A DNA stretch of 64,000 bases from Bacillota bacterium (GCA_036733985.1 DAIMZM010000001.1:36-64035), one strand, 5' to 3'. Positions 2,696-35,234 are shown, counted from the stretch's first letter. Numbers and translations: made by a program. The notes: a model not told the origin generated them from the letters alone.

Positions 2696-3937
2696 ATGGC
2701 AACTGTTAGACCTTTCAAAGCGGTGCGGCCCCAGCCTGAGCTGGCGGCAAAAGTAGCGGCCCTGCCCTATGACGTCATGAATTCCGACGAGGCCAGGGAG
2801 ATGGTGCAAGATAACGCCCATTCCTTCCTCCATGTGGACAAGGCTGAGATCGATTTGCCCAGGGAAACCCACCTTTATGACGCGGCGGTCTATGAATGCG
2901 CCGCCACCAAGCTGAGAAAAATGATCGAAGACGGTACTTTCCTCCGGGAAGACAAGCCCTGCTATTATATTTACCGCCAGGTGATGGCCGGCCGGGCCCA
3001 GACCGGCATTGTGGGCTGCGCCGCCATTGACGACTATCTCAGCAATGTGATCAAAAAGCATGAGCTGACCCGGGCGGACAAAGAAGAGGACCGCTGCAAC
3101 CATGTGGATTATTGCGACGCCAACACCGGCCCGATCTTCCTCACCTACCGGGCCCGGAAAGCCATTAACGACGTGGTGGACAAAGTCACCGCCACCCAGC
3201 CGGTTTATGATTTCCAGGCCGACGGCGTCCAGCAGACCGTATGGGTGATCCGGGACGACCAGGATATCAGCCTGATCAGCCGGGAATTTAGCGCCACTCC
3301 CAGCCTCTATATTGCCGACGGCCATCACCGCAGCGCTTCCGCGGTGCGGATCGGCAGAAAGCGCCGGGTGCAGCGCCCCGGTTATACCGGCGACGAGGAA
3401 TTCAATTATTTCCTCTCCGTGCTGTTCCCTGATGAGCAGCTCTATATCATGGATTATAACCGGGTGGTCAAGGATTTGAACGGGCTTAGCGAAGACCAGT
3501 TCAAGGAAAAGATCGCCGAGAAGTTCACCGTGGAGCCCTATAGCGGCCAAGGCCCCTGCCGCCCGGCGGAGCAGCACAGCTTCGGCATGTATTTAGGCGG
3601 CAAATGGTATCTGCTCCGGGCCAAAGCCGGCAGCTACGATGCGCAAGACCCGGTGAAGAGCCTGGATGTGTCCATCCTCCAGGAAAACCTGCTCCACCCC
3701 ATCCTGGGCATTGGCGATCCCCGCACGGATAAGCGCATCGATTTTATCGGCGGCATCCGGGGCCTGGGCGAATTGGAGAAGCGGGTCAAAGAAGGCATGG
3801 CCGTGGCTTTCGCCATGCATCCCACCACCATTGACCAGCTGATCAGCATTGCCGACGCCGGCCTGATCATGCCCCCCAAATCCACCTGGTTCGAGCCCAA
3901 GCTCCTTTCCGGTTTGTTTGTGCATGAACTGAGCTGA
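2696..3937 (+). CDS. DUF1015 family protein
   Basis: SLYIADGHHR motif and overall DUF1015-like sequence; ser-gene neighbourhood typical of the family. Confidence 0.85.
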   Translation: MATVRPFKAVRPQPELAAKVAALPYDVMNSDEAREMVQDNAHSFLHVDKAEIDLPRETHLYDAAVYECAATKLRKMIEDGTFLREDKPCYYIYRQVMAGRAQTGIVGCAAIDDYLSNVIKKHELTRADKEEDRCNHVDYCDANTGPIFLTYRARKAINDVVDKVTATQPVYDFQADGVQQTVWVIRDDQDISLISREFSATPSLYIADGHHRSASAVRIGRKRRVQRPGYTGDEEFNYFLSVLFPDEQLYIMDYNRVVKDLNGLSEDQFKEKIAEKFTVEPYSGQGPCRPAEQHSFGMYLGGKWYLLRAKAGSYDAQDPVKSLDVSILQENLLHPILGIGDPRTDKRIDFIGGIRGLGELEKRVKEGMAVAFAMHPTTIDQLISIADAGLIMPPKSTWFEPKLLSGLFVHELS

Positions 3938-22658: not shown

Positions 22659-22692
22659 AAAGCCTTGCGCTTAACAGCGCAAGGCTTTTTTC
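22659..22692 (+). terminator. terminator after the DegV gene (AAGCCTTGCGC-TTAACA-GCGCAAGGCTT then TTTTT); the stop codon of the convergent minus-strand gene sits in its loop
   Basis: Perfect 11-bp stem with T-tract. Confidence 0.75.
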
Positions 22693-23096
22693 CGCCCTTT
22701 TCCCCCGGCCGCCCCGCTTCTGCCGTATTTGCGGCGGCAGATTAAGAAAAGCGAACCGCAGAGCATAAAGGGCAGGCCAAAGACCAGAGCCATGTCCAAA
22801 TCTTTAAGGCCGCCGTTTATCAAATGAAAGATTGCCATACCCATACCGCCAATGATTTGCAGGATACCGCCGGTCTTTTCGTTGAATAGGGCAATCACCC
22901 ATCCCGCAATAGCCATGCCTAATAACGGGAGAAAGGGCAACAGCTCCGTATCAATGCCGTTTTGGATGATGCCGGGCAGGCCCTCGCCGACCAAAAACAG
23001 CAAGAAAAACCCGGAGGCGAAAAAGCCGGTCAGCCGCCCGGTCCATCTTAAAATCAGCCCGATACGCTTTCCGGATTCCTCAGCTTGATTTGCCAT
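22671..23096 (-). CDS. hypothetical membrane protein (4 TM, basic C-tail)
   Basis: Hydrophobic segments; GC-rich codon usage like the core genome. Confidence 0.6.
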   Translation of the reverse strand: MANQAEESGKRIGLILRWTGRLTGFFASGFFLLFLVGEGLPGIIQNGIDTELLPFLPLLGMAIAGWVIALFNEKTGGILQIIGGMGMAIFHLINGGLKDLDMALVFGLPFMLCGSLFLICRRKYGRSGAAGGKGRKKALRC

Positions 23097-23252
23097 GCCA
23101 ACCGCCTCATTTATAATAAGCCTCTAATCTTTATTTTAACGGTTTTGCTTGCCTTGTCAAGTTTCCCGCGCCGGTACCCTGCTCCATCTTTGATGGAGGA
23201 TCAAACCCATGGGGCCCTATCTGTTTTTTCACATTGTGGAGCATTTTCAGCC

Positions 23253-23480
23253 TCATTCAATGGGAACATGGTTTAAATGGGTTGATGTTCCTGATTTTTC
23301 AGGGGAATGTTCTTTTGTGTCCCGTACGTTTTCGTTAATGCTTCTGAGAATCTTCTTACCCATATCTTTTATCTGTGCCGACGTTTTCTCCGGCAGATGC
23401 TCAAACAGCTTCTCCGCCATATTCAGTTTTAAACCAATAATCCTGCCTATGCGTTCTTCATCCATTATACTCGCCTCCAA
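23253..23480 (-). CDS. small hypothetical protein (70-75 aa, helical, charged, no Cys, no TM)
   Basis: Overlaps the 3' end of the ATPase gene (translational coupling); low-GC codon usage matching the islet; start may be the internal MDEERIG (23465). Confidence 0.5.
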   Translation of the reverse strand: MEASIMDEERIGRIIGLKLNMAEKLFEHLPEKTSAQIKDMGKKILRSINENVRDTKEHSPEKSGTSTHLNHVPIE

Positions 23481-24633
23481 AACGGATTTTCAGCATTCCA
23501 TCCTCGAACGCCGCTTTTTTTATGGAACGGCTGAGAAGTGTCCGCGGCAGGGTAATGTTCCTTTTAACAGCTCCGGCCTTAACAATCAGTTCGTCACCCT
23601 TTTGATTCAGGGCAAGGTCTTTTTTCTCCGCAAAAGGAATCGTAAGGGAAAGGATATAATCGTCCCCGTCCTTATCCACCTGCTGTGTTCTGCCGTTATA
23701 GTCGATATCCGCCGGATTGCGGTCCTGAAATATCTCTTCGGCCATTCTGCCCAGCATCGTCCATCCGACCACCTCCGTCTCAAAAAGAGGCGCATAATAA
23801 ATCGGGATAGGCGAGAAACTTTCGACGATATCCTTTTTATATTTCCGCTGGATATCCTTCCAGCCCTTAAAATAATCGTCTGTGATGCTTTCCGGGAATA
23901 CGCGATTGACAACTACGGCGTCCACATTAAAATCATAGATATTGAGATAGGTAAAACTGCGTTGCGCCTCCTTTATAACCATTTTTTCAGGATTAACCAC
24001 AATCCGAATGCTTGTGGTGTTTCTATCCGAAAATATCGTCCGCATTTCATCCAGTTCATAGTATATGTGATCAATCTCATCCATCACCTGACCGGACGGC
24101 ATCGGAATTCCAGCCAATGCCCCAATGACAGGGCCGGCAACTTTTACGGCTTTCTTTTTGATCGGGAAGAGCTTTTCCATCCACCACCGGAGCATTTCAG
24201 GGAAACTTAAGAGCGCAAGCGTTTCGCCTGTCGGCGCGCAGTCGATGATGATTACGTCAAACCTGCCTTCTTTATAGTATTTCAGGATGCGCAGCAAGCT
24301 CAGAAGGTCCTGCATGCCGGGGAAAACTGTCAGTTCCTCTGTTGTTATATCTTTTACCGCCTTTGCCGTAAAAAGTTCAGTGAGATATTTCTGAACCTGC
24401 CCCCAGCCTTTTTCTACCTCATGGGTCGTATCGATCTCCTGGGCCCAAAGATTTTCTTTTATTTCCATCAGCTCGTTCGTTAACTTCATGTCAAAGGAAT
24501 CCCCCAGACTGTGGGCTGCATCCGTACTGATAACCAGCGTTTTTAATCCCCGACCGGCACTCTTCACTGCGGTGGCGGCCGCAACACTTGTTTTGCCGAC
24601 TCCGCCTTTTCCGGTATAAATGATAATCCTCAT
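23458..24633 (-). CDS. ArsA/Get3-family P-loop ATPase with C-terminal HSP20/CS-like beta-sandwich domain
   Basis: GKGGVGKTS deviant Walker A, DCAPTGET switch motif, single ATPase unit, no ArsA metalloid Cys triad; about 90-aa C-terminal domain resembling the ArsA-associated HSP20-like fold. Confidence 0.8.
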   Translation of the reverse strand: MRIIIYTGKGGVGKTSVAAATAVKSAGRGLKTLVISTDAAHSLGDSFDMKLTNELMEIKENLWAQEIDTTHEVEKGWGQVQKYLTELFTAKAVKDITTEELTVFPGMQDLLSLLRILKYYKEGRFDVIIIDCAPTGETLALLSFPEMLRWWMEKLFPIKKKAVKVAGPVIGALAGIPMPSGQVMDEIDHIYYELDEMRTIFSDRNTTSIRIVVNPEKMVIKEAQRSFTYLNIYDFNVDAVVVNRVFPESITDDYFKGWKDIQRKYKKDIVESFSPIPIYYAPLFETEVVGWTMLGRMAEEIFQDRNPADIDYNGRTQQVDKDGDDYILSLTIPFAEKKDLALNQKGDELIVKAGAVKRNITLPRTLLSRSIKKAAFEDGMLKIRFGGEYNG

Positions 24634-24711
24634 AAAAAGCCTCCTTCCGCATTTAATTCATAGTACGAATACTACTAAATACGAAGTAATTGACGAAAAA
24701 ATTTGCGGCTG

Positions 24712-25194
24712 TTAGTCGATTTCAATTTTCCGTATGGCATTTTCATGCTGTTGATTAGCCGCCTGCGCTACGGATTCCTCAGTTAAAATATTTAGGATTT
24801 TGCCTGCGATCTGAGCCAAAAAGCGTATTTCTTCCTGCGTCAGCTTATCAGCCACTTTGTTCATATATTCTGCAACAAGCTCTTTAAGTCTTTTGATCTC
24901 TTCAATTCCTTTTTCTGAAAGCCTCAGAACAACGATTCTCCTGTCTTGTTCACTTCTTTCCCTGATGATATAGCCGTTCTTAACAAGCCTGTTGATAATG
25001 CCCGTCGCCGTACTCAAGGGTGAATGGATATATTCCGCAAGCTCTGTCATAATGATTTCTTTTTTCTTTTCAATCAGCAGCAGAGCGAATATCTCTGTTT
25101 TAGAAAATTTCAGGTCAAAGCTAAGCCATTCTTCCGGGAAAAATAATTTTTTCAGGTTATTAAGCAATAGGTCTGTAACATATTCAGTGTCCAT
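24712..25194 (-). CDS. MarR family transcriptional regulator
   Basis: Winged-helix MarR core (TELAEYIHSPLSTATGIINRLVKNGYIIRERSEQDRR). Confidence 0.85.
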   Translation of the reverse strand: MDTEYVTDLLLNNLKKLFFPEEWLSFDLKFSKTEIFALLLIEKKKEIIMTELAEYIHSPLSTATGIINRLVKNGYIIRERSEQDRRIVVLRLSEKGIEEIKRLKELVAEYMNKVADKLTQEEIRFLAQIAGKILNILTEESVAQAANQQHENAIRKIEID

Positions 25195-25243
25195 AAAACA
25201 TTTTACCTCTCAAATAATTCTCTGAACGTACTATACGGAGCTA

Positions 25244-25272
25244 ATTATATTCGTCTTAACCATTTTTGTCAA
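25244..25272 (-). promoter_or_regulatory. consensus sigma-A promoter of the islet operon (TTGACA-17-TATAAT)
   Basis: Perfect hexamers with 17-bp spacer, about 45 nt upstream of the marR ATG. Confidence 0.6.
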
Positions 25273-25282
25273 TAGTAATAGA

Positions 25283-25323
25283 AAGGGTATTATCCCTCAA
25301 AAATATCAAGAGATAATACCCTT
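25283..25323 (-). other. AT-rich inverted repeat AAGGGTATTATC-N17-GATAATACCCTT just upstream of the islet promoter; ppdK terminator and/or operator
   Basis: 12-bp arms read directly, 76 nt downstream of the ppdK stop. Confidence 0.45.
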
Positions 25324-25398
25324 ACTTTATTTATGCTTATCCCCTAAAGCCTTGGTATATAAAAACTTTTTACCTCTGGCCGTCAGGGGGCGGACAAG

Positions 25399-28026
25399 CT
25401 AGGCCTCTTTAATAGCGGCCTGGGCGGCTGCCAGCCGGGCGATGGGCACCCGGAAGGGGGAGCAGGACACATACTGCAGGCCGATCTGATGGCAGAACTC
25501 CACAGAAGCCGGATCGCCGCCATGCTCGCCGCAGATGCCCAGATGGATATCAGGCCGGGTGGCTTTGCCCTTTTGAACCGCCATCTGCATCAGCTGGCCC
25601 ACGCCCTTGAAGTCCACCCGGGCAAAGGGATCGCTCTCGTAAATCTGCTTCTTGTAGTAATCATCCAGGAAAGCCCCGGCGTCGTCCCGGGAGAAGCCGA
25701 AGGTCATCTGGGTCAGATCGTTGGTGCCGAAGGAGAAGAACTCGGCCACCTCCGCGATCTCATCAGCCAGCAGGGCGGCCCGGGGGATCTCGATCATAGT
25801 GCCCACCAGGTAGTTCAGCTCAATACCGGCCTCGGCAATGATCTGGTCGGCCACCCTTTTCACGATATCCGCCACATATTTCAGCTCTTTCACATCGCCC
25901 ACCAGGGGGATCATGATCTCAGGCTGGATATTGTAGCCCTTGTTCTGCTTGACCTGAAGGGCGGCTTCAATAATGGCCCTGGTCTGCATCTCGGCGATCT
26001 CCGGATAGGTGACGGTAAGGCGGCAGCCCCGGTGGCCCATCATGGGGTTGAACTCATGCAGCGCCGCGGACCTGGCTTTTACCTGCTCAAAGCTGATGCC
26101 CATATCTTTGGCCAAGTCGGCGATGTCCTCGTCTTCCTTGGGCAGGAATTCATGCAGCGGCGGGTCCAGCAGGCGCACGGTGACCGGCCGTTCCGCCATG
26201 GCTTCGTAAATGCCGATGAAATCTTCCCGCTGCATGGGCAGGAGCTGATCCAGGGCCTGGCGGCGGGCAGCCTCGTTATCCGCCAGGATCATCCGGCGCA
26301 TCACCGGAATCCGGTCCTCGTTGAAGAACATATGCTCGGTGCGGGTCAGGCCAATGCCCTCGGCGCCGAATTCCACAGCCCGGGCCGCGTCCTTTGGCGT
26401 ATCCGCATTGGTGCGTACATGCAGCTTGCGGTACTGGTCGGCCCAGCCCATGAAGCGGCCGAAATTGCCGCTAATGGAAGCGGGCGCGGTTTTGATATCC
26501 CCGGCGTAAATCTTGCCGGTGGTGCCGTCCAGGGACATATAATCGCCCTCATGGAAGATATGCCCGCCCAGCTCCAGGGTTTTAGCCTCTTCATCGATCC
26601 TGGCTTCGCCGCAGCCGGCCACGCAGCAGGTGCCCATGCCCCTGGCCACCACGGCGGCATGGGAAGTACGGCCGCCCCGGGCGGTAAGGATGCCCTCGGC
26701 AGCCACCATACCTTCGATGTCCTCAGGCGAGGTCTCCGTCCGGGCCAGGATCACCCGTTCTTTGCGCTCATTATGGGCGATCTTGGCGTCCTCGGCGGTG
26801 AAATAGACGCGGCCGGCGGCAGAGCCGGGGCTGGCGGGCAAGGCCTGGCCGATGGGCTGGGCTTTGGCCAGTTCAGCCGGGTCAAAGGTGGGATGCAGCA
26901 GCTGATCCAGCTGCTTGGGATCCACTTTCATCAGGGCTTCCTTCTCCGTGATCATGCCTTCGTCTACCAGATCCACGGCCACCTGCAAGGCGGCGGCGGC
27001 GGTGCGCTTGCCGTTCCGGGTCTGAAGGAAATAGAGCTTCTTATCCTCAATGGTAAACTCCATATCCTGCATATCTTTATAATGGTTTTCCAGCCTGGTG
27101 GCGATTTCCACAAACTGCTGGTAAACCTCGGGCATATCCTGTTCCAGCACGGAGATGGGCTTGGGCGTGCGGATGCCGGCCACCACGTCCTCGCCCTGGG
27201 CATTGATCAGGTATTCGCCGAAGAGCTTCTTCTCGCCGGTGGCGGGATCCCGGGTGAAAGCCACGCCGGTGCCGGAGGTATCGCCCATATTGCCGAAAAC
27301 CATCATCTGCACATTGACGGCGGTGCCCCAATCGCCGGGGATATCGTTCATGCGGCGGTAGACGATGGCCCGGTCGTTATTCCAGGAGCGGAACACGGCT
27401 TTCACCGCGCCCAGCAGCTGTTCATGGGGATCGGCGGGGAAATCCTGGCCGATCTTGGCCTTGTATTCCGCCTTGAACTGCTCGGCCAGCTCCTGCAAAT
27501 CGGCGGCGGTGAGCTCGGTATCAAACTCCACGCCCCGGGCTTCCTTCATCTGGCCGATCAGCTGCTCGAAATACTTCTTGCCCACTTCCATGACCACGTC
27601 GCTGTACATCTGGATGAAGCGGCGGTAAGAATCGTAAGCAAAGCGGGGGTTGCCGGTCCTTTTGGCAAAAGCCGCCACCGCCTCGTCGTTCAGGCCTAAG
27701 TTAAGGATGGTATCCATCATGCCGGGCATGGAAGCCCGGGAGCCGGAACGCACCGATACCAGCAGCGGGTTTTCAATATCGCCAAACTTTTTACCGGAGA
27801 TCTTTTCCAGTTCAGCCATGGCCTCGTCGATTTGAGCGATGATCTCAGCGCTGATCGTCTCGCCATTTGCGTAATAGTCGTTGCAAGCTTCCGTCGTCAC
27901 CGTAAAGCCCTGAGGAATGGGCATGCCCAGGCGGGTCATTTCCGCCAGGTTCGCGCCCTTACCACCCAGCAGGTTCTTCATGCCGGCATCGCCTTCACGG
28001 AAATGATACACGAATTTTTTGCTCAT
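25399..28026 (-). CDS. ppdK: pyruvate, phosphate dikinase
   Basis: MSKKFVYHFREGDAGMKNLLGGKGANLAEM N-terminus, PEP-utilising His domain (GGRTSHAAVVARG), full length 875 aa. Confidence 0.95.
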   Translation of the reverse strand: MSKKFVYHFREGDAGMKNLLGGKGANLAEMTRLGMPIPQGFTVTTEACNDYYANGETISAEIIAQIDEAMAELEKISGKKFGDIENPLLVSVRSGSRASMPGMMDTILNLGLNDEAVAAFAKRTGNPRFAYDSYRRFIQMYSDVVMEVGKKYFEQLIGQMKEARGVEFDTELTAADLQELAEQFKAEYKAKIGQDFPADPHEQLLGAVKAVFRSWNNDRAIVYRRMNDIPGDWGTAVNVQMMVFGNMGDTSGTGVAFTRDPATGEKKLFGEYLINAQGEDVVAGIRTPKPISVLEQDMPEVYQQFVEIATRLENHYKDMQDMEFTIEDKKLYFLQTRNGKRTAAAALQVAVDLVDEGMITEKEALMKVDPKQLDQLLHPTFDPAELAKAQPIGQALPASPGSAAGRVYFTAEDAKIAHNERKERVILARTETSPEDIEGMVAAEGILTARGGRTSHAAVVARGMGTCCVAGCGEARIDEEAKTLELGGHIFHEGDYMSLDGTTGKIYAGDIKTAPASISGNFGRFMGWADQYRKLHVRTNADTPKDAARAVEFGAEGIGLTRTEHMFFNEDRIPVMRRMILADNEAARRQALDQLLPMQREDFIGIYEAMAERPVTVRLLDPPLHEFLPKEDEDIADLAKDMGISFEQVKARSAALHEFNPMMGHRGCRLTVTYPEIAEMQTRAIIEAALQVKQNKGYNIQPEIMIPLVGDVKELKYVADIVKRVADQIIAEAGIELNYLVGTMIEIPRAALLADEIAEVAEFFSFGTNDLTQMTFGFSRDDAGAFLDDYYKKQIYESDPFARVDFKGVGQLMQMAVQKGKATRPDIHLGICGEHGGDPASVEFCHQIGLQYVSCSPFRVPIARLAAAQAAIKEA

Positions 28027-33053: not shown

Positions 33054-33152
33054 GATACGACACGATTTCTTCTTTTGCGCATAAACAGGCGGTTTAAATC
33101 AAAGCCTTAATGTGTTAAAATCAATTATAAATCAATTAAGGGAGGCTTAGGC

Positions 33153-33512
33153 ATGGGTAAAGAGATCGTCACCGCGCTCGGCGTCATCGATATCAGCAGA
33201 GACGTTATTGCCACGCTGGCAGGAATCGCCACCACCGAATGCTTCGGCGTCGTCGGCATGGTGTCCTCCCGCATTTTCAGCGACGGCATCAGCGAGCTGC
33301 TGGGCCGGGAAGCGCTTTCCAAAGGCGTGGATGTGGCCATCAGGGACAATGTGCTGCATATTCGTGTTAATGTGGTGGTGGGCTATGGCAACCGGGTCTC
33401 CGTGATTGCCACCAATATTATCGAAAATGTCAAATATATCGTGGAAAGGCATACCGGGCTGATTGTCGATCAGGTGGACGTGCATGTGCAGGCCGTCCGC
33501 GTGGTGGACTAA
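33153..33512 (+). CDS. Asp23/Gls24 family envelope stress protein
   Basis: Asp23-like sequence; conserved partner of the DAK2 protein. Confidence 0.9.
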   Translation: MGKEIVTALGVIDISRDVIATLAGIATTECFGVVGMVSSRIFSDGISELLGREALSKGVDVAIRDNVLHIRVNVVVGYGNRVSVIATNIIENVKYIVERHTGLIVDQVDVHVQAVRVVD

Positions 33513-33533
33513 GGCAAGGAGGACGATAAGCGG

Positions 33534-35234
33534 ATGAGTAAACAAATCGAGCGGATGGACGGGGCACGGCTTGCTGCCTTTTTCAGGCATGGCTCCGACT
33601 ATCTGGGCCAGCATAAAGAAGCAATCAACGCCCTGAACGTCTTTCCGGTGCCGGACGGCGACACCGGCATCAATATGTATCTGACCGTCAGCTCCGCCGG
33701 GGCCAAGCTGCCTCAAGACCCGGCGGGCATCCCGGTGGGGAAAATCGCCGCTGATTTTGCCCAGGGCACGCTGATGGGGGCCCGGGGCAATAGCGGCGTG
33801 ATCCTCTCCCAGATTTTCCGGGGCTTGGCTTCCTCCCTGGCCGGTAAAGACAGCGCCGGCCCGGCCGAACTGGCCGCCGCCCTGCAAAAGGGCTCGGATA
33901 TCGCTTATAAATCCGTGATGAAGCCGGTGGAAGGCACCATCCTCACGGTTTACCGGGAATTTGCCGCCGCCGCCCTGAGAGCCGCGGAGAAAAAGGCGGA
34001 TATCCTGGAAATGCTGGGCCAGGCCCTGAAAGCCGGGGAAAAAGCCCTGGCCAATACCCCCAACCTGCTGCCGGTGCTCAAAGAAGCCGGCGTGGTGGAC
34101 GCCGGGGGCAAGGGCCTGCTTTGCTTTATGGAAGGCGGCCTGGCCGGCCTGGCTGAGGGCAGGCTGCCCATACGGGTTCCCACAGCGGCCCCGGCTCCGG
34201 TAACGCCGGCCCCCGCTGCCAAGATCCCGCCCCAGGAGGCAGCGGCTGAGGAGGCTATCGCTTTTACCTACTGCACCCAGCTCCTGGTCAAGGGAGAACA
34301 TCTGCCCATTGACCAAATCCGGGAACGGCTTTCCCAGGATCCCCCCGGCGACAGCCTGCTGGTGGTGGGGGACGAAAGCCTGATCAAAATCCATTTCCAC
34401 AACAACCATCCCGGCCAGGTGCTGGAATACTGCGCGGGCTTCGGCAGCCTGCATGATATCATCATCGATAATATGCGGGATCAGCATCATCAGACCATCA
34501 TCGACGCGGCCGAGGCTGAGGAAGCGGCAACAGCCCAGGCCGCCCCGGCTTGGACGTTACCGGCGGCAACCCCGGTCCGCTGCGGCGTGGTGGCGGTTTG
34601 CGTAGGCGAGGGCCTGGCCGGCATCTACGAAGACCTGGGCGCCCAGGTGATCTCCGGCGGCCAGACCATGAACCCCTCTGCCGAAGACCTGGTACAGGCC
34701 GTGGAGGAATGCCCCGGGGCGGAAGTGGTGATCCTGCCCAATAACAGCAATATCATCCTTACCGCCGGCCAGGTGCAATACCTGACGGAGAAAAAGGTTT
34801 GCATCGTGCCCAGTAAATTCGTGACCCAGGGCCTCACCGCCATGCTCCGCTTCAACCCGGAGCATGACGCGGAGCAAAACGCCGCGGCCATGGAAAAAGC
34901 CGGGCAAAAGGTGCTGAACGGCGAGCTGACCTATGCGGTGCGGGATACCAGGTATAATGGCTTCGAAATCAAATCCGGGGATATCCTGGGGCTGTTCCAG
35001 GGCGAGATCGTGGCCACCGGCCAAGACCTGGGGCAAACCTTCCAACAGCTGATCGCCAAAATGGTGGGAGAAGCTGAGGAGCCGGAGCTGCTCTCCCTTT
35101 TCTACGGCCACGACGTGGACGCGGAACAGGCGGAAGCCCTGGCCGGCCAGGCGGCTGAAGCTTGCCCGGATCTGGATGTGGAGACCCATTTCGGCGGGCA
35201 GCCCCTGTACTATTTCCTCATCGCGGTTGAATAA
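33534..35234 (+). CDS. yloV: DAK2 domain fusion protein YloV
   Basis: N-terminal DAK2 domain (PDGDTGINM), C-terminal DegV-like half; upstream of recG as in many Firmicutes. Confidence 0.9.
   Translation: MSKQIERMDGARLAAFFRHGSDYLGQHKEAINALNVFPVPDGDTGINMYLTVSSAGAKLPQDPAGIPVGKIAADFAQGTLMGARGNSGVILSQIFRGLASSLAGKDSAGPAELAAALQKGSDIAYKSVMKPVEGTILTVYREFAAAALRAAEKKADILEMLGQALKAGEKALANTPNLLPVLKEAGVVDAGGKGLLCFMEGGLAGLAEGRLPIRVPTAAPAPVTPAPAAKIPPQEAAAEEAIAFTYCTQLLVKGEHLPIDQIRERLSQDPPGDSLLVVGDESLIKIHFHNNHPGQVLEYCAGFGSLHDIIIDNMRDQHHQTIIDAAEAEEAATAQAAPAWTLPAATPVRCGVVAVCVGEGLAGIYEDLGAQVISGGQTMNPSAEDLVQAVEECPGAEVVILPNNSNIILTAGQVQYLTEKKVCIVPSKFVTQGLTAMLRFNPEHDAEQNAAAMEKAGQKVLNGELTYAVRDTRYNGFEIKSGDILGLFQGEIVATGQDLGQTFQQLIAKMVGEAEEPELLSLFYGHDVDAEQAEALAGQAAEACPDLDVETHFGGQPLYYFLIAVE

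Follow-up and report, generated by a model that had tools for sequence, protein, structure and literature searches.

A 64,000-nt stretch of DNA from a Bacillota bacterium (GCA_036733985.1, DAIMZM010000001.1:36-64035; the window, below, means this whole stretch) carries at positions 23,253 to 25,194 three adjacent genes, encoding a MarR-family repressor, an ATPase of the Get3/ArsA fold that ends in an alpha-crystallin (HSP20-like) domain (ACD), and a small protein. These are called the trio here. An initial annotation made from the sequence alone had proposed this three-gene run, and all three open reading frames (ORFs) proved to be real, on the minus strand and placed as it had them. The finding that carries our interpretation concerns the ends of the two flanking proteins, both of which close with the type of C-terminal tail that small heat-shock proteins (sHSPs) use to bind an ACD. 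The features concerned are as follows.

24712..25194, minus strand: gene for the MarR-family repressor, 160 aa (PF01047, 9.6e-14)
24715..24735, minus strand: MarR C-terminal tail, I-R-K-I-E-I-D-COOH, matching the sHSP-type IxI motif (42 orthologues)
23458..24633, minus strand: gene for the Get3/ArsA-fold ATPase, 391 aa, with C-terminal ACD (PF02374 and PF17886, NCBIfam, PDB search)
23476..23685, minus strand: ACD of the ATPase, residues 317-386, seven strands (PF17886, strands of an AlphaFold2 [AF2] model, entropy of 42 orthologues)
23253..23465, minus strand: gene for the small protein, 70 aa, a divergent DUF3926 by orthologue comparison, gene calls and profile match
23256..23276, minus strand: small-protein C-terminal tail, L-N-H-V-P-I-E-COOH, matching the IxI type (37 orthologues)

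The ATPase matches two Pfam hidden Markov models, PF02374 (ArsA_ATPase) over residues 1-301 at 3.9e-98 and PF17886 (ArsA_HSP20) over residues 323-385 at 6.2e-23, which confirms the single ArsA/Get3-type domain and the HSP20-like C-terminus seen by the initial annotation. Its elements are a deviant Walker A (GKGGVGKT), switch I (STDAAHS), switch II (DCAPTGET), a helical subdomain of the client-binding type, which is hydrophobic and conserved, and the ACD. The first and third of these motifs had been picked out already; all three, together with the A-loop region (APLFETEVVG), align to the archaeal Get3 structure 3ZQ6 and are invariant across orthologues. The only cysteine, C132, lies within DCAPTGET, so the protein indeed lacks the metalloid-binding cysteines of ArsA (Cys113, Cys172 and Cys422 in the R773 enzyme).

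To which ATPases is it closest? A PDB sequence search gave Chlamydomonas ARSA1 (5ZME, 1e-49) and archaeal Get3 (3ZQ6, 3e-47; 3UG6, 2.5e-45), with weaker matches to ArsA (7e-23), to the Nostoc Get3d protein (1.8e-23, N-terminal part only) and to BagAB (about 1e-7). Get3d here denotes Nostoc All4481 (NosGet3d) and Arabidopsis At1g26090 (AtGet3d), with PDB entries 3IGF, 8EGK and 8ELF and the NCBIfam model NF050088 (NosAFP). The protein passed the NCBIfam subfamily model GET3_arsA_TRC40 (TIGR00345; 275.6 bits vs a cut-off of 135) and failed the equivalog models for ArsA (TIGR04291; 100.2 bits vs 650), ArsA_halo (128.8 vs 800) and NosAFP (162.7 vs 325). An AF2 model (predicted local distance difference test score [pLDDT] 76, predicted template modelling score [pTM] 0.75) has a Get3 fold and, at 317-386, a sandwich of seven strands. 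Foldseek searches with this model ranked archaeal Get3 (3zq6, 3ug7) first, at 33% identity over about 305 columns; NosGet3d (8egk) and AtGet3d (8ELF) aligned over about 390-410 columns, ACD included, at about 21% identity. Judged by its motifs and these matches, the ATPase is catalytically complete, has the Get3/ArsA fold and has a nucleotide-binding domain closest to archaeal Get3/TRC40. The ratio of nonsynonymous to synonymous differences (pN/pS) from its counterpart in L002, one of two Clostridial metagenome-assembled genomes (MAGs; L001 and L002) used for comparison, is 0.13. From this value and from its retention as a 391-aa protein that is 65-92% conserved across classes, it is under strong purifying selection.

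The small gene starts at ATG 23465, giving 70 aa, and public gene callers give 70 aa as well; our ORF finder instead gave 75 aa from TTG 23480, a 'start' that falls inside the F-G-G codons of the ATPase. A GGAGG Shine-Dalgarno sequence lies 8 nt upstream of the ATG and the start overlaps the ATPase stop by 8 nt (ATGgaTGA), a geometry kept in 35 of 37 orthologues; the translational coupling read into this junction by the initial annotation is thereby upheld. At 23466-23480 the Shine-Dalgarno sequence (GGAGG or GGAAG) is made of codons for the conserved C-terminal Phe-Gly-Gly/Ser of the ATPase, whose last residues are consequently under dual constraint. The pN/pS value of the small ORF against L002 is 0.21, which marks it as a real gene. 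AlphaFold folds its product as a hairpin of two helices (3-21 and 26-52; pLDDT 85-89) and leaves residues 53-70 disordered; no structural match to it was found in the PDB.

The assignment of the small protein to a family needed an intermediate. Bacillus thuringiensis YB6 has the same trio, annotated as MarR, ArsA family ATPase (66% identical to that of the window) and 'DUF3926 domain-containing protein', and its small gene overlaps the ATPase gene by the same 8 nt. This small protein is a bona fide DUF3926 (PF13080, 1e-33). The PF13080 model itself gave no match at E<=1 to the window protein and 34 orthologues (35 in all), and yet a profile built from the Clostridial small proteins matches the B. 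thuringiensis protein at 2e-13 (Z=1), with or without the tail. Because of this profile match and the equivalent overlapping position after an orthologous ATPase, the window protein is assigned as a divergent member of DUF3926, a family without known function whose Pfam model misses the Clostridial proteins. The initial annotation was therefore right to call it Cys-free and helical, with 70 aa the better of the lengths it offered (70-75 aa), and wrong only in finding no recognisable family. A profile search for natural fusions of the small protein found none, returning just stand-alone proteins of 66-74 aa.

The ATPase has at least 8000 relatives in a large protein collection. The best 120 of these are 75-100% identical to it, nearly all exactly 391 aa long, spread over many Clostridial genera and usually named 'arsenite-transporting ATPase' or 'ArsA family ATPase'. 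When genomes were scanned, one per species, 43 loci came up with ATPase identities of 65-92%, in the Clostridiaceae, Ruminococcaceae, Peptococcaceae, Halanaerobiales and Haloplasmataceae and in the genera Desulfosporosinus, Syntrophomonas, Lutispora, Caloramator, Anaerovorax and Sedimentibacter. The ATPase gene is present in all 43 and the order MarR-ATPase-small ORF is constant. The MarR gene noted upstream of the ATPase in the window is directly upstream in every locus with sequence there (41/41). Neighbourhood analysis likewise bears out the association of the small protein with this ATPase subtype: it holds in B. thuringiensis, and of the 41 loci whose ATPase gene is complete about 37 have a small ORF that overlaps its stop, the remaining four showing truncated or decayed copies. 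In an all-against-all clustering of 468 flanking ORFs from the 43 loci, every other gene was confined to 10 loci or fewer, and no conserved fourth gene came to light. By its gene content and distribution the trio is thus a self-contained, horizontally mobile module of 41 or more Bacillota genomes. The existence of the module is not in itself new; it is common, and is annotated piecemeal as MarR, 'ArsA family ATPase' and hypothetical protein or DUF3926.

MarR has the winged helix of its family (PF01047, and PF12802 at 1.1e-9), and its best PDB relative is FabT (6jbx; 8e-10, residues 30-128). Judged against FabT and other solved MarR proteins, the core ends near residue 140 and is followed by a variable linker of about 20 aa and then the tail, which must accordingly be an appendage. 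Over the roughly 15-20 residues before the tail the entropy is about 3 bits per column; the tail itself follows the pattern [IVL]-[KR]-K-I-x-I-[ED]-COOH in all 42 orthologues, with Ile at -4 and -2 in 42/42, [ED] at -1 in 41/42 and Lys at -5 in 33/42. The small protein has an unconserved charged linker and then [LIV]-x-x-[IV]-x-[IVL]-[ED]-COOH, with [IV] at -4 and [IVL] at -2 in all 37 orthologues and [ED] at -1 in 33 of them. As background, 384 unrelated ORFs of these loci were compared: 4 (1%) have the ending [ILV]x[ILV][DE], and a single one fits the longer pattern. Going by these residue patterns, both tails are the C-terminal IxI motif of sHSPs, the ligand of the groove between strands beta4 and beta8 of the ACD. 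The initial annotation had missed the tails on both proteins and left the module without a function; the tails provide a testable mechanism. The possibility that the small protein is a paralogue of the C-terminal helices of MarR was also considered. The hhalign signal (P=1.4e-4 with tails) is lost when the tails are removed (0.035, within the range of column shuffles), which shows that the two proteins resemble each other in the tail alone, and the paralogy was rejected.

The ACD of the ATPase ends at its last strand, without a C-terminal extension or tail of its own. By per-column entropy in 42 orthologues, with strands numbered by analogy, its least variable stretches are DLALNQKGDELIVKAG (beta4-beta5), VKRNITLPR (beta7) and A374/F376 (beta8). 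In sHSPs the IxI tails bind the beta4/beta8 groove, and removal of the last five residues of MjHSP16.5 abolishes its oligomerisation (PMC3638399). Nor is the groove reserved for sHSPs: it also accepts the IPV motifs of BAG3, a co-chaperone that is not an sHSP, and has been called a hot spot where regulatory interactions compete (PMC6212398). The trio resembles these systems in having I/V-x-I/V on a flexible extension, an ACD in the partner and a precedent for competition. It differs in that the ACD belongs to an ATPase and the motif sits on products of the same operon, a transcription factor and a 70-aa protein, with the contact inferred.

Unrelated proteins with comparable tails accompany ACD-bearing ATPases in other lineages. 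Actinobacteria (Nonomuraea and five distinct soil-metagenome loci that cover the end of the downstream gene) have a PF02374+PF17886 ATPase, 36% identical to that of the window, followed by a DUF5304 protein of 137-331 aa; the linkers of these proteins are very different, and in every case the tail is V-E-[HR]-I-D-L-[DGN]-COOH. The DUF5304 loci (L048, 5168-5602; L050, L052-L054, L056 and L057) have the order SRPBCC - ATPase - DUF5304 - ROK glucokinase, reminiscent of the SCO2127-glkA region of Streptomyces coelicolor. Two metagenomic types add further partners. In one (L061/L064) a 74-aa protein begins 4 nt after the ACD-ATPase gene (2365-2589 in L061) and ends ...GTQVPVD; in the other (L060) the ACD-ATPase is followed by a 57-aa protein (about 3700-3880) that ends ...GLKKIEVE. 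These two small proteins share a helix, E-h-L-x-x-h-x-S-L-I-[DE]-x-R-I, and the 74-aa protein of L061 has a Cys-rich N-terminus (CENPGCFC). In all four lineages with tail partners the ACD has L-x-[KQ]-KGDELI at beta4-beta5. A locus of another kind occurs in Fusobacterium vincentii (L047, 2814-5167), where two ArsA_ATPase+ArsA_HSP20 genes, of 396 and 388 aa, stand in tandem with overlapping stop and start; this locus has no MarR, no tail-bearing small protein and no KGDELI motif at beta4-beta5, and its pair may be a heterodimeric variant of the family.

The MarR gene is equipped with conserved candidate control sites, which are listed here with an inverted repeat that had been taken for one of them.

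25244..25272, minus strand: marR promoter, TTGACA-17 nt-TATAAT, 12/12 consensus positions (sigma-70 promoter scan)
25213..25234, minus strand: putative operator O1, window copy ATAGTACG-TTCAG-AGAATTAT (anchored comparison of 42 loci)
24654..24691, minus strand: putative operator O2 in the marR-ATPase spacer, AATTACTTCG-TATTT-AGTAGTATTCG-TACTAT-GAATTA (comparison of 42 loci)
25283..25323, minus strand: inverted repeat GGGTATTATC...GATAATACCC, between the ppdK stop, which it closely follows, and the marR -35 (sequence)

Nearly all loci have a TTGACA/TAnnAT pair in the equivalent aligned position. The conserved candidate operators, at about 25213-25234 and 24654-24691, are of the type ATATTTCG-N5-CGAAATAT. 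O1 has the family consensus ATATTTCG-N5-CGAAATATT, found with two or fewer mismatches in 33 of 42 loci; it begins a few bases past the -10 (about 8 nt in the window) and stops 15-19 nt short of the marR ATG. O2 has the consensus aATAtTTCG-N5-cGtAgTATTCg-N5-aGAAatA, that is, two overlapping palindromes. From the conservation of these palindromes and their placement at the marR promoter and ahead of the ATPase gene, MarR is predicted to repress at both. The initial annotation had instead proposed the palindrome at 25283-25323 as the MarR operator. This repeat is upstream of the -35 and is common to the window and L002 alone (L002 also has ppdK upstream), the other loci being without it, so that it is out as an operator; it is probably a ppdK terminator or an insulator at the upstream edge of the islet described below. 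In most loci marR and O2 are separated by a hairpin that resembles a terminator, GCCCAT..ATGGGC-T(n), but the window and L001-L003 are without it; since it is lacking there, the three window genes are probably co-transcribed as a single transcript. In-frame read-through from marR through the spacer into the ATPase gene is interrupted by two stops.

We propose that the trio is a module in which the ACD docks the tails of its partners and couples the state of the ATPase to its own transcription. In this scheme the beta4/beta8 groove would accept the MarR and small-protein tails in trans, and a dimeric ATPase, with two ACDs, would hold a MarR dimer, with two tails, by two-point avidity. The small protein, made in stoichiometric amounts with the ATPase through translational coupling, would compete for the same grooves, so setting the threshold of a feedback on chaperone occupancy. 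The availability of the ATPase, or its nucleotide or client state, would thus control the activity of MarR on its own operon, with the ATPase acting as either co-repressor or anti-repressor. Candidate clients are hydrophobic or tail-anchored segments, or unfolded proteins generally. Trans docking is inferred because both partners have invariant tails, the ACD has none, sHSPs and BAG3 provide a precedent and independent lineages repeat the arrangement. We give the full reading a probability of roughly 0.55. The description of the trio by the initial annotation as a regulated module around a chaperone- or targeting-type ATPase, with an HSP20-like domain and a coupled small partner, was right in outline.

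In its regulatory logic the scheme would resemble chaperone-titration circuits such as HspR-DnaK, HrcA-GroEL and sigma32-DnaK, in which the regulator of a stress-chaperone operon is physically controlled by the chaperone product. The regulator family, the class of chaperone and the proposed contact all differ, and the comparison is an analogy alone. A wider version, which we advance tentatively and at less than even odds, is that trans IxI docking is the general function of the ACD in Get3d-like ATPases, the partners being MarR and a DUF3926 decoy in Bacillota and DUF5304 in Actinobacteria; the ACD of chloroplast and cyanobacterial Get3d may then have equivalent IxI-bearing partners encoded at unlinked sites.

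Several observations weigh against the docking proposal. The window copy of O1 is degenerate, with four mismatches. No tail protein is encoded next to cyanobacterial Get3d (a Nostoc locus), nor next to the Fusobacterium pair. Two of about 110 full-length ATPases, among 150 representatives, carry a tail on their own C-terminus (P0231 and P0180); these might represent the contact made in cis by nature, though their number is about that expected by chance. (P0231 ends ...GKDEDYEIPID; P0180 has a charged linker of 34 aa and then ...GEEIGL.) In the solved Get3d structures the ACD packs on the ATPase dimer and does not mediate oligomerisation (PMC10248533); were the ACD of the module packed in the same way, its groove may be partly occluded or otherwise used. 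Literature searches returned nothing on the module and no expression data for it.

Of the competing explanations, the one that survives best keeps the tails as ligands of the ATPase and moves their site. They would bind outside the ACD groove, at the nucleotide-sandwich dimer or a Get4-type surface, and tune ATP hydrolysis, much as partner peptides do in SIMIBI ATPases of the ParA-MinD type (ParB, MinE, Get4/Get1/Get2); the ACD would do something else, for example stabilise the closed dimer as proposed for Get3d. The conserved dibasic [KR]-K before the IxI of the MarR tail does recall basic activating peptides. The known activating peptides are, however, N-terminal and either helical or basic, not C-terminal and of the form hydrophobic-x-hydrophobic-acid. 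Regulation of Get3-class ATPases does involve partner segments that act at the dimer interface, and the ACD of Get3d sits on the Get4 site (PMC10248533), but the tails match the C-termini of archaeal and bacterial sHSPs such as the IxI of MjHSP16.5 (PMC3638399), and in the lineages sampled the tail partners co-occur with ACD-ATPases that share the KGDELI motif at beta4-beta5. We judge this alternative unlikely.

A simpler account dispenses with a tail complex. MarR would be an ordinary repressor, responsive to a small molecule or oxidant, of a stress-induced Get3-like holdase; the small protein would be an unrelated co-factor, and the shared C-terminal motif a stability or degradation signal or a localisation signal. 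MarR proteins are usually controlled by ligands or redox, and the conserved operators suit simple autoregulation. This account nevertheless leaves unexplained why the same C-terminal motif stands on two unrelated proteins flanking an ACD-ATPase in more than 40 genomes, and why unrelated downstream proteins in other phyla (DUF5304 and the L060 and L061 types) have such tails. The acidic C-terminal residue is atypical of C-terminal degrons of the ClpXP type, and a conserved Cys is not evident in the MarR alignment. These points make it distinctly unlikely.

Still less probable, as a full account, is strict tail-anchored protein targeting of the Get3 type, in which the small protein would be a soluble adaptor or would mimic a receptor (like Get4 or the Get1 coiled coil), MarR would be a mere regulator, and the tails would tether accessory factors to the targeting ATPase. 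The small-protein hairpin resembles the cytosolic coiled coil of Get1, and the ATPase has an intact active site, a conserved hydrophobic helical subdomain and its closest relatives in archaeal Get3/TRC40 and Chlamydomonas ARSA1; Get3d, moreover, binds tail-anchored proteins in vitro (PMC10248533). That said, the 43 neighbourhoods hold no membrane receptor gene or conserved membrane protein, the CXXC zinc motif of Get3 is absent and the small protein has no structural match. Targeting also overlaps with the docking proposal rather than excluding it.

The remaining idea, that the trio is a decayed ars operon of which an ArsA half and a regulator survive, is refuted for practical purposes: it can point to the database name 'arsenite-transporting ATPase' and the PF02374 match, but the protein has one ArsA_ATPase domain and is half the size of ArsA, with its two tandem halves (about 580 aa), falls far short of the ArsA equivalog cut-off, has no Cys at the metalloid sites, is conserved in its 391-aa form and has no arsB/acr3, arsC, arsD or arsR within 11 kb on either side in the window or recurrently in the 43 loci. 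The same gene content, equivalog failure and single Cys uphold the initial view that arsenic efflux is unlikely, and on this evidence the module is not an arsenic system. It shares with ArsA (E. coli R773, PDB 1F48) the superfamily, the Pfam domain and an operon that also encodes a repressor (there ArsR) and a small partner (there ArsD), but ArsA is a duplicated protein of about 583 aa that works with ArsB/Acr3, and the module ATPase is neither duplicated nor so partnered. A role in anti-phage defence was also set aside, as a PADLOC search matched neither the ATPase nor the small protein.

Comparison with Get3d is the most instructive, because the combination of ATPase and ACD was already described there; the Get3d study (PMC10248533) is the only relevant paper on this architecture that we found. 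Both proteins have the Get3/ArsA fold with a C-terminal seven-stranded ACD (PF02374+PF17886), and neither has the CXXC zinc motif. Beyond the low identity and NosAFP score given above, they differ in the active site, which is complete in the module ATPase (P-loop, switch I and II, A-loop region) and degenerate in NosGet3d and AtGet3d (PMC10248533); a plasmid-borne Nostoc Get3d copy has GKADTRHT and lacks switch II. According to the paper 'the role of the aCD is unclear', and it regards the ACD as unique to the Get3d clade and tied to photosynthesis (PMC10248533), whereas the hosts here are non-photosynthetic Bacillota, the ATPase domain is nearer to archaeal Get3 by E-value, and the operon includes IxI-tailed partners of a kind unreported for Get3d. 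About 830 clusters of ACD-bearing ATPases (at 50% identity) score E<=1e-30, and such Get3-like proteins occur widely among non-photosynthetic Bacillota and Actinobacteria, with their active sites intact. The non-cyanobacterial ones mostly have DCAPT[GA]E as switch II, not DTAPTGH.

Archaeal Get3/TRC40 (Methanothermobacter thermautotrophicus 3ZQ6, Methanocaldococcus jannaschii 3UG6/3UG7) and ARSA1 (5ZME) are about 33% identical to the module ATPase over about 305 residues but lack the ACD and have no MarR or small-protein partners. With Get3 proper the module ATPase shares the deviant Walker A, the switch I Asp, switch II and the A-loop region; its switch II reads DCAPTGE in place of DTAPTGH (Cys and Glu for Thr and His), and with a single Cys it has no dimer-interface CXXC zinc motif. 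Mycobacterial BagA and BagB (Rv3679/Rv3680; PDB 6BS3) are likewise bacterial Get3-like ATPases with a non-arsenic function, but they are very distant (3e-7 to 6e-7; NCBIfam scores of 47-50 bits vs cut-offs of 400-521) and form a heterodimeric pair without MarR or DUF3926 partners. The apparent novelty, then, lies in the conserved IxI-tail wiring through which an ACD-bearing Get3-like ATPase would be joined to its repressor and small partner, and in the reappearance of such wiring in other phyla with partners of unrelated families.

The module thus offers the ACD of Get3d-type ATPases a concrete candidate ligand, encoded next door and open to testing. If the proposal holds, a bacterial repressor would have a new way to read chaperone load, the trio being a new kind of sensor of chaperone occupancy, with an sHSP-style contact that ties a transcription factor to a Get3-type ATPase. 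Two DUF families, DUF3926 and DUF5304, would gain functions, and thousands of 'arsenite-transporting ATPase' annotations would need correcting.

The trio also stands out from its surroundings in composition. The low-GC islet noted by the initial annotation is borne out by a G+C fraction (GC) of 0.31-0.51 over about 23100-25400, vs about 0.60 in the flanks; the unit itself is an insert of about 2.07 kb with about 44% GC inside a chromosome of about 60% GC. Its DNA is 84-85% identical to that of L001 and L002, which are low-GC (31-45%), and the match extends exactly from 23252/3 to 25279/25324, that is, from the promoter region through the stop codon of the small gene. Between the window and L002 the ATPase is 88% identical, MarR 83% and the small protein 83%, and PpdK just 63%. 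The high identity of the trio, the contrast with PpdK and the GC indicate that the trio has moved laterally, by recent acquisition from, or exchange with, a low-GC lineage. The ppdK gene lies directly upstream of the trio both in the window (25399-28026, in a 60% GC genome) and in L002 (1678-4302, about 38% GC), and this common context, with a divergent PpdK beside a similar trio, suggests a preferred context for insertion or recombinational replacement.

The neighbours within 11 kb on either side are chromosomal housekeeping genes. On the higher-coordinate side, upstream of the trio, are PpdK, GlyS, GlyQ, GltX, two ORFs and RecG; the two ORFs, in the gltX-recG interval (33147-34490, minus strand, 447 aa, and 34557-35189, minus strand, 210 aa), had no Pfam match at 1e-5. 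No Rfam family reached its gathering score in the window. The lower-coordinate side, downstream of the trio, has an SBP_bac_5 protein, hydantoinases A and B, an M23 peptidase, a ZIP transporter, DegV and DUF7670. The DUF7670 gene is absent beside the trio in all other loci compared; its GC is intermediate (0.50-0.55), and it may or may not have come with the islet. It encodes a membrane protein (22671-23096, minus strand; PF24709, 5.7e-10) just downstream of the trio and has a sigma-70-like promoter of its own at 23160-23133.

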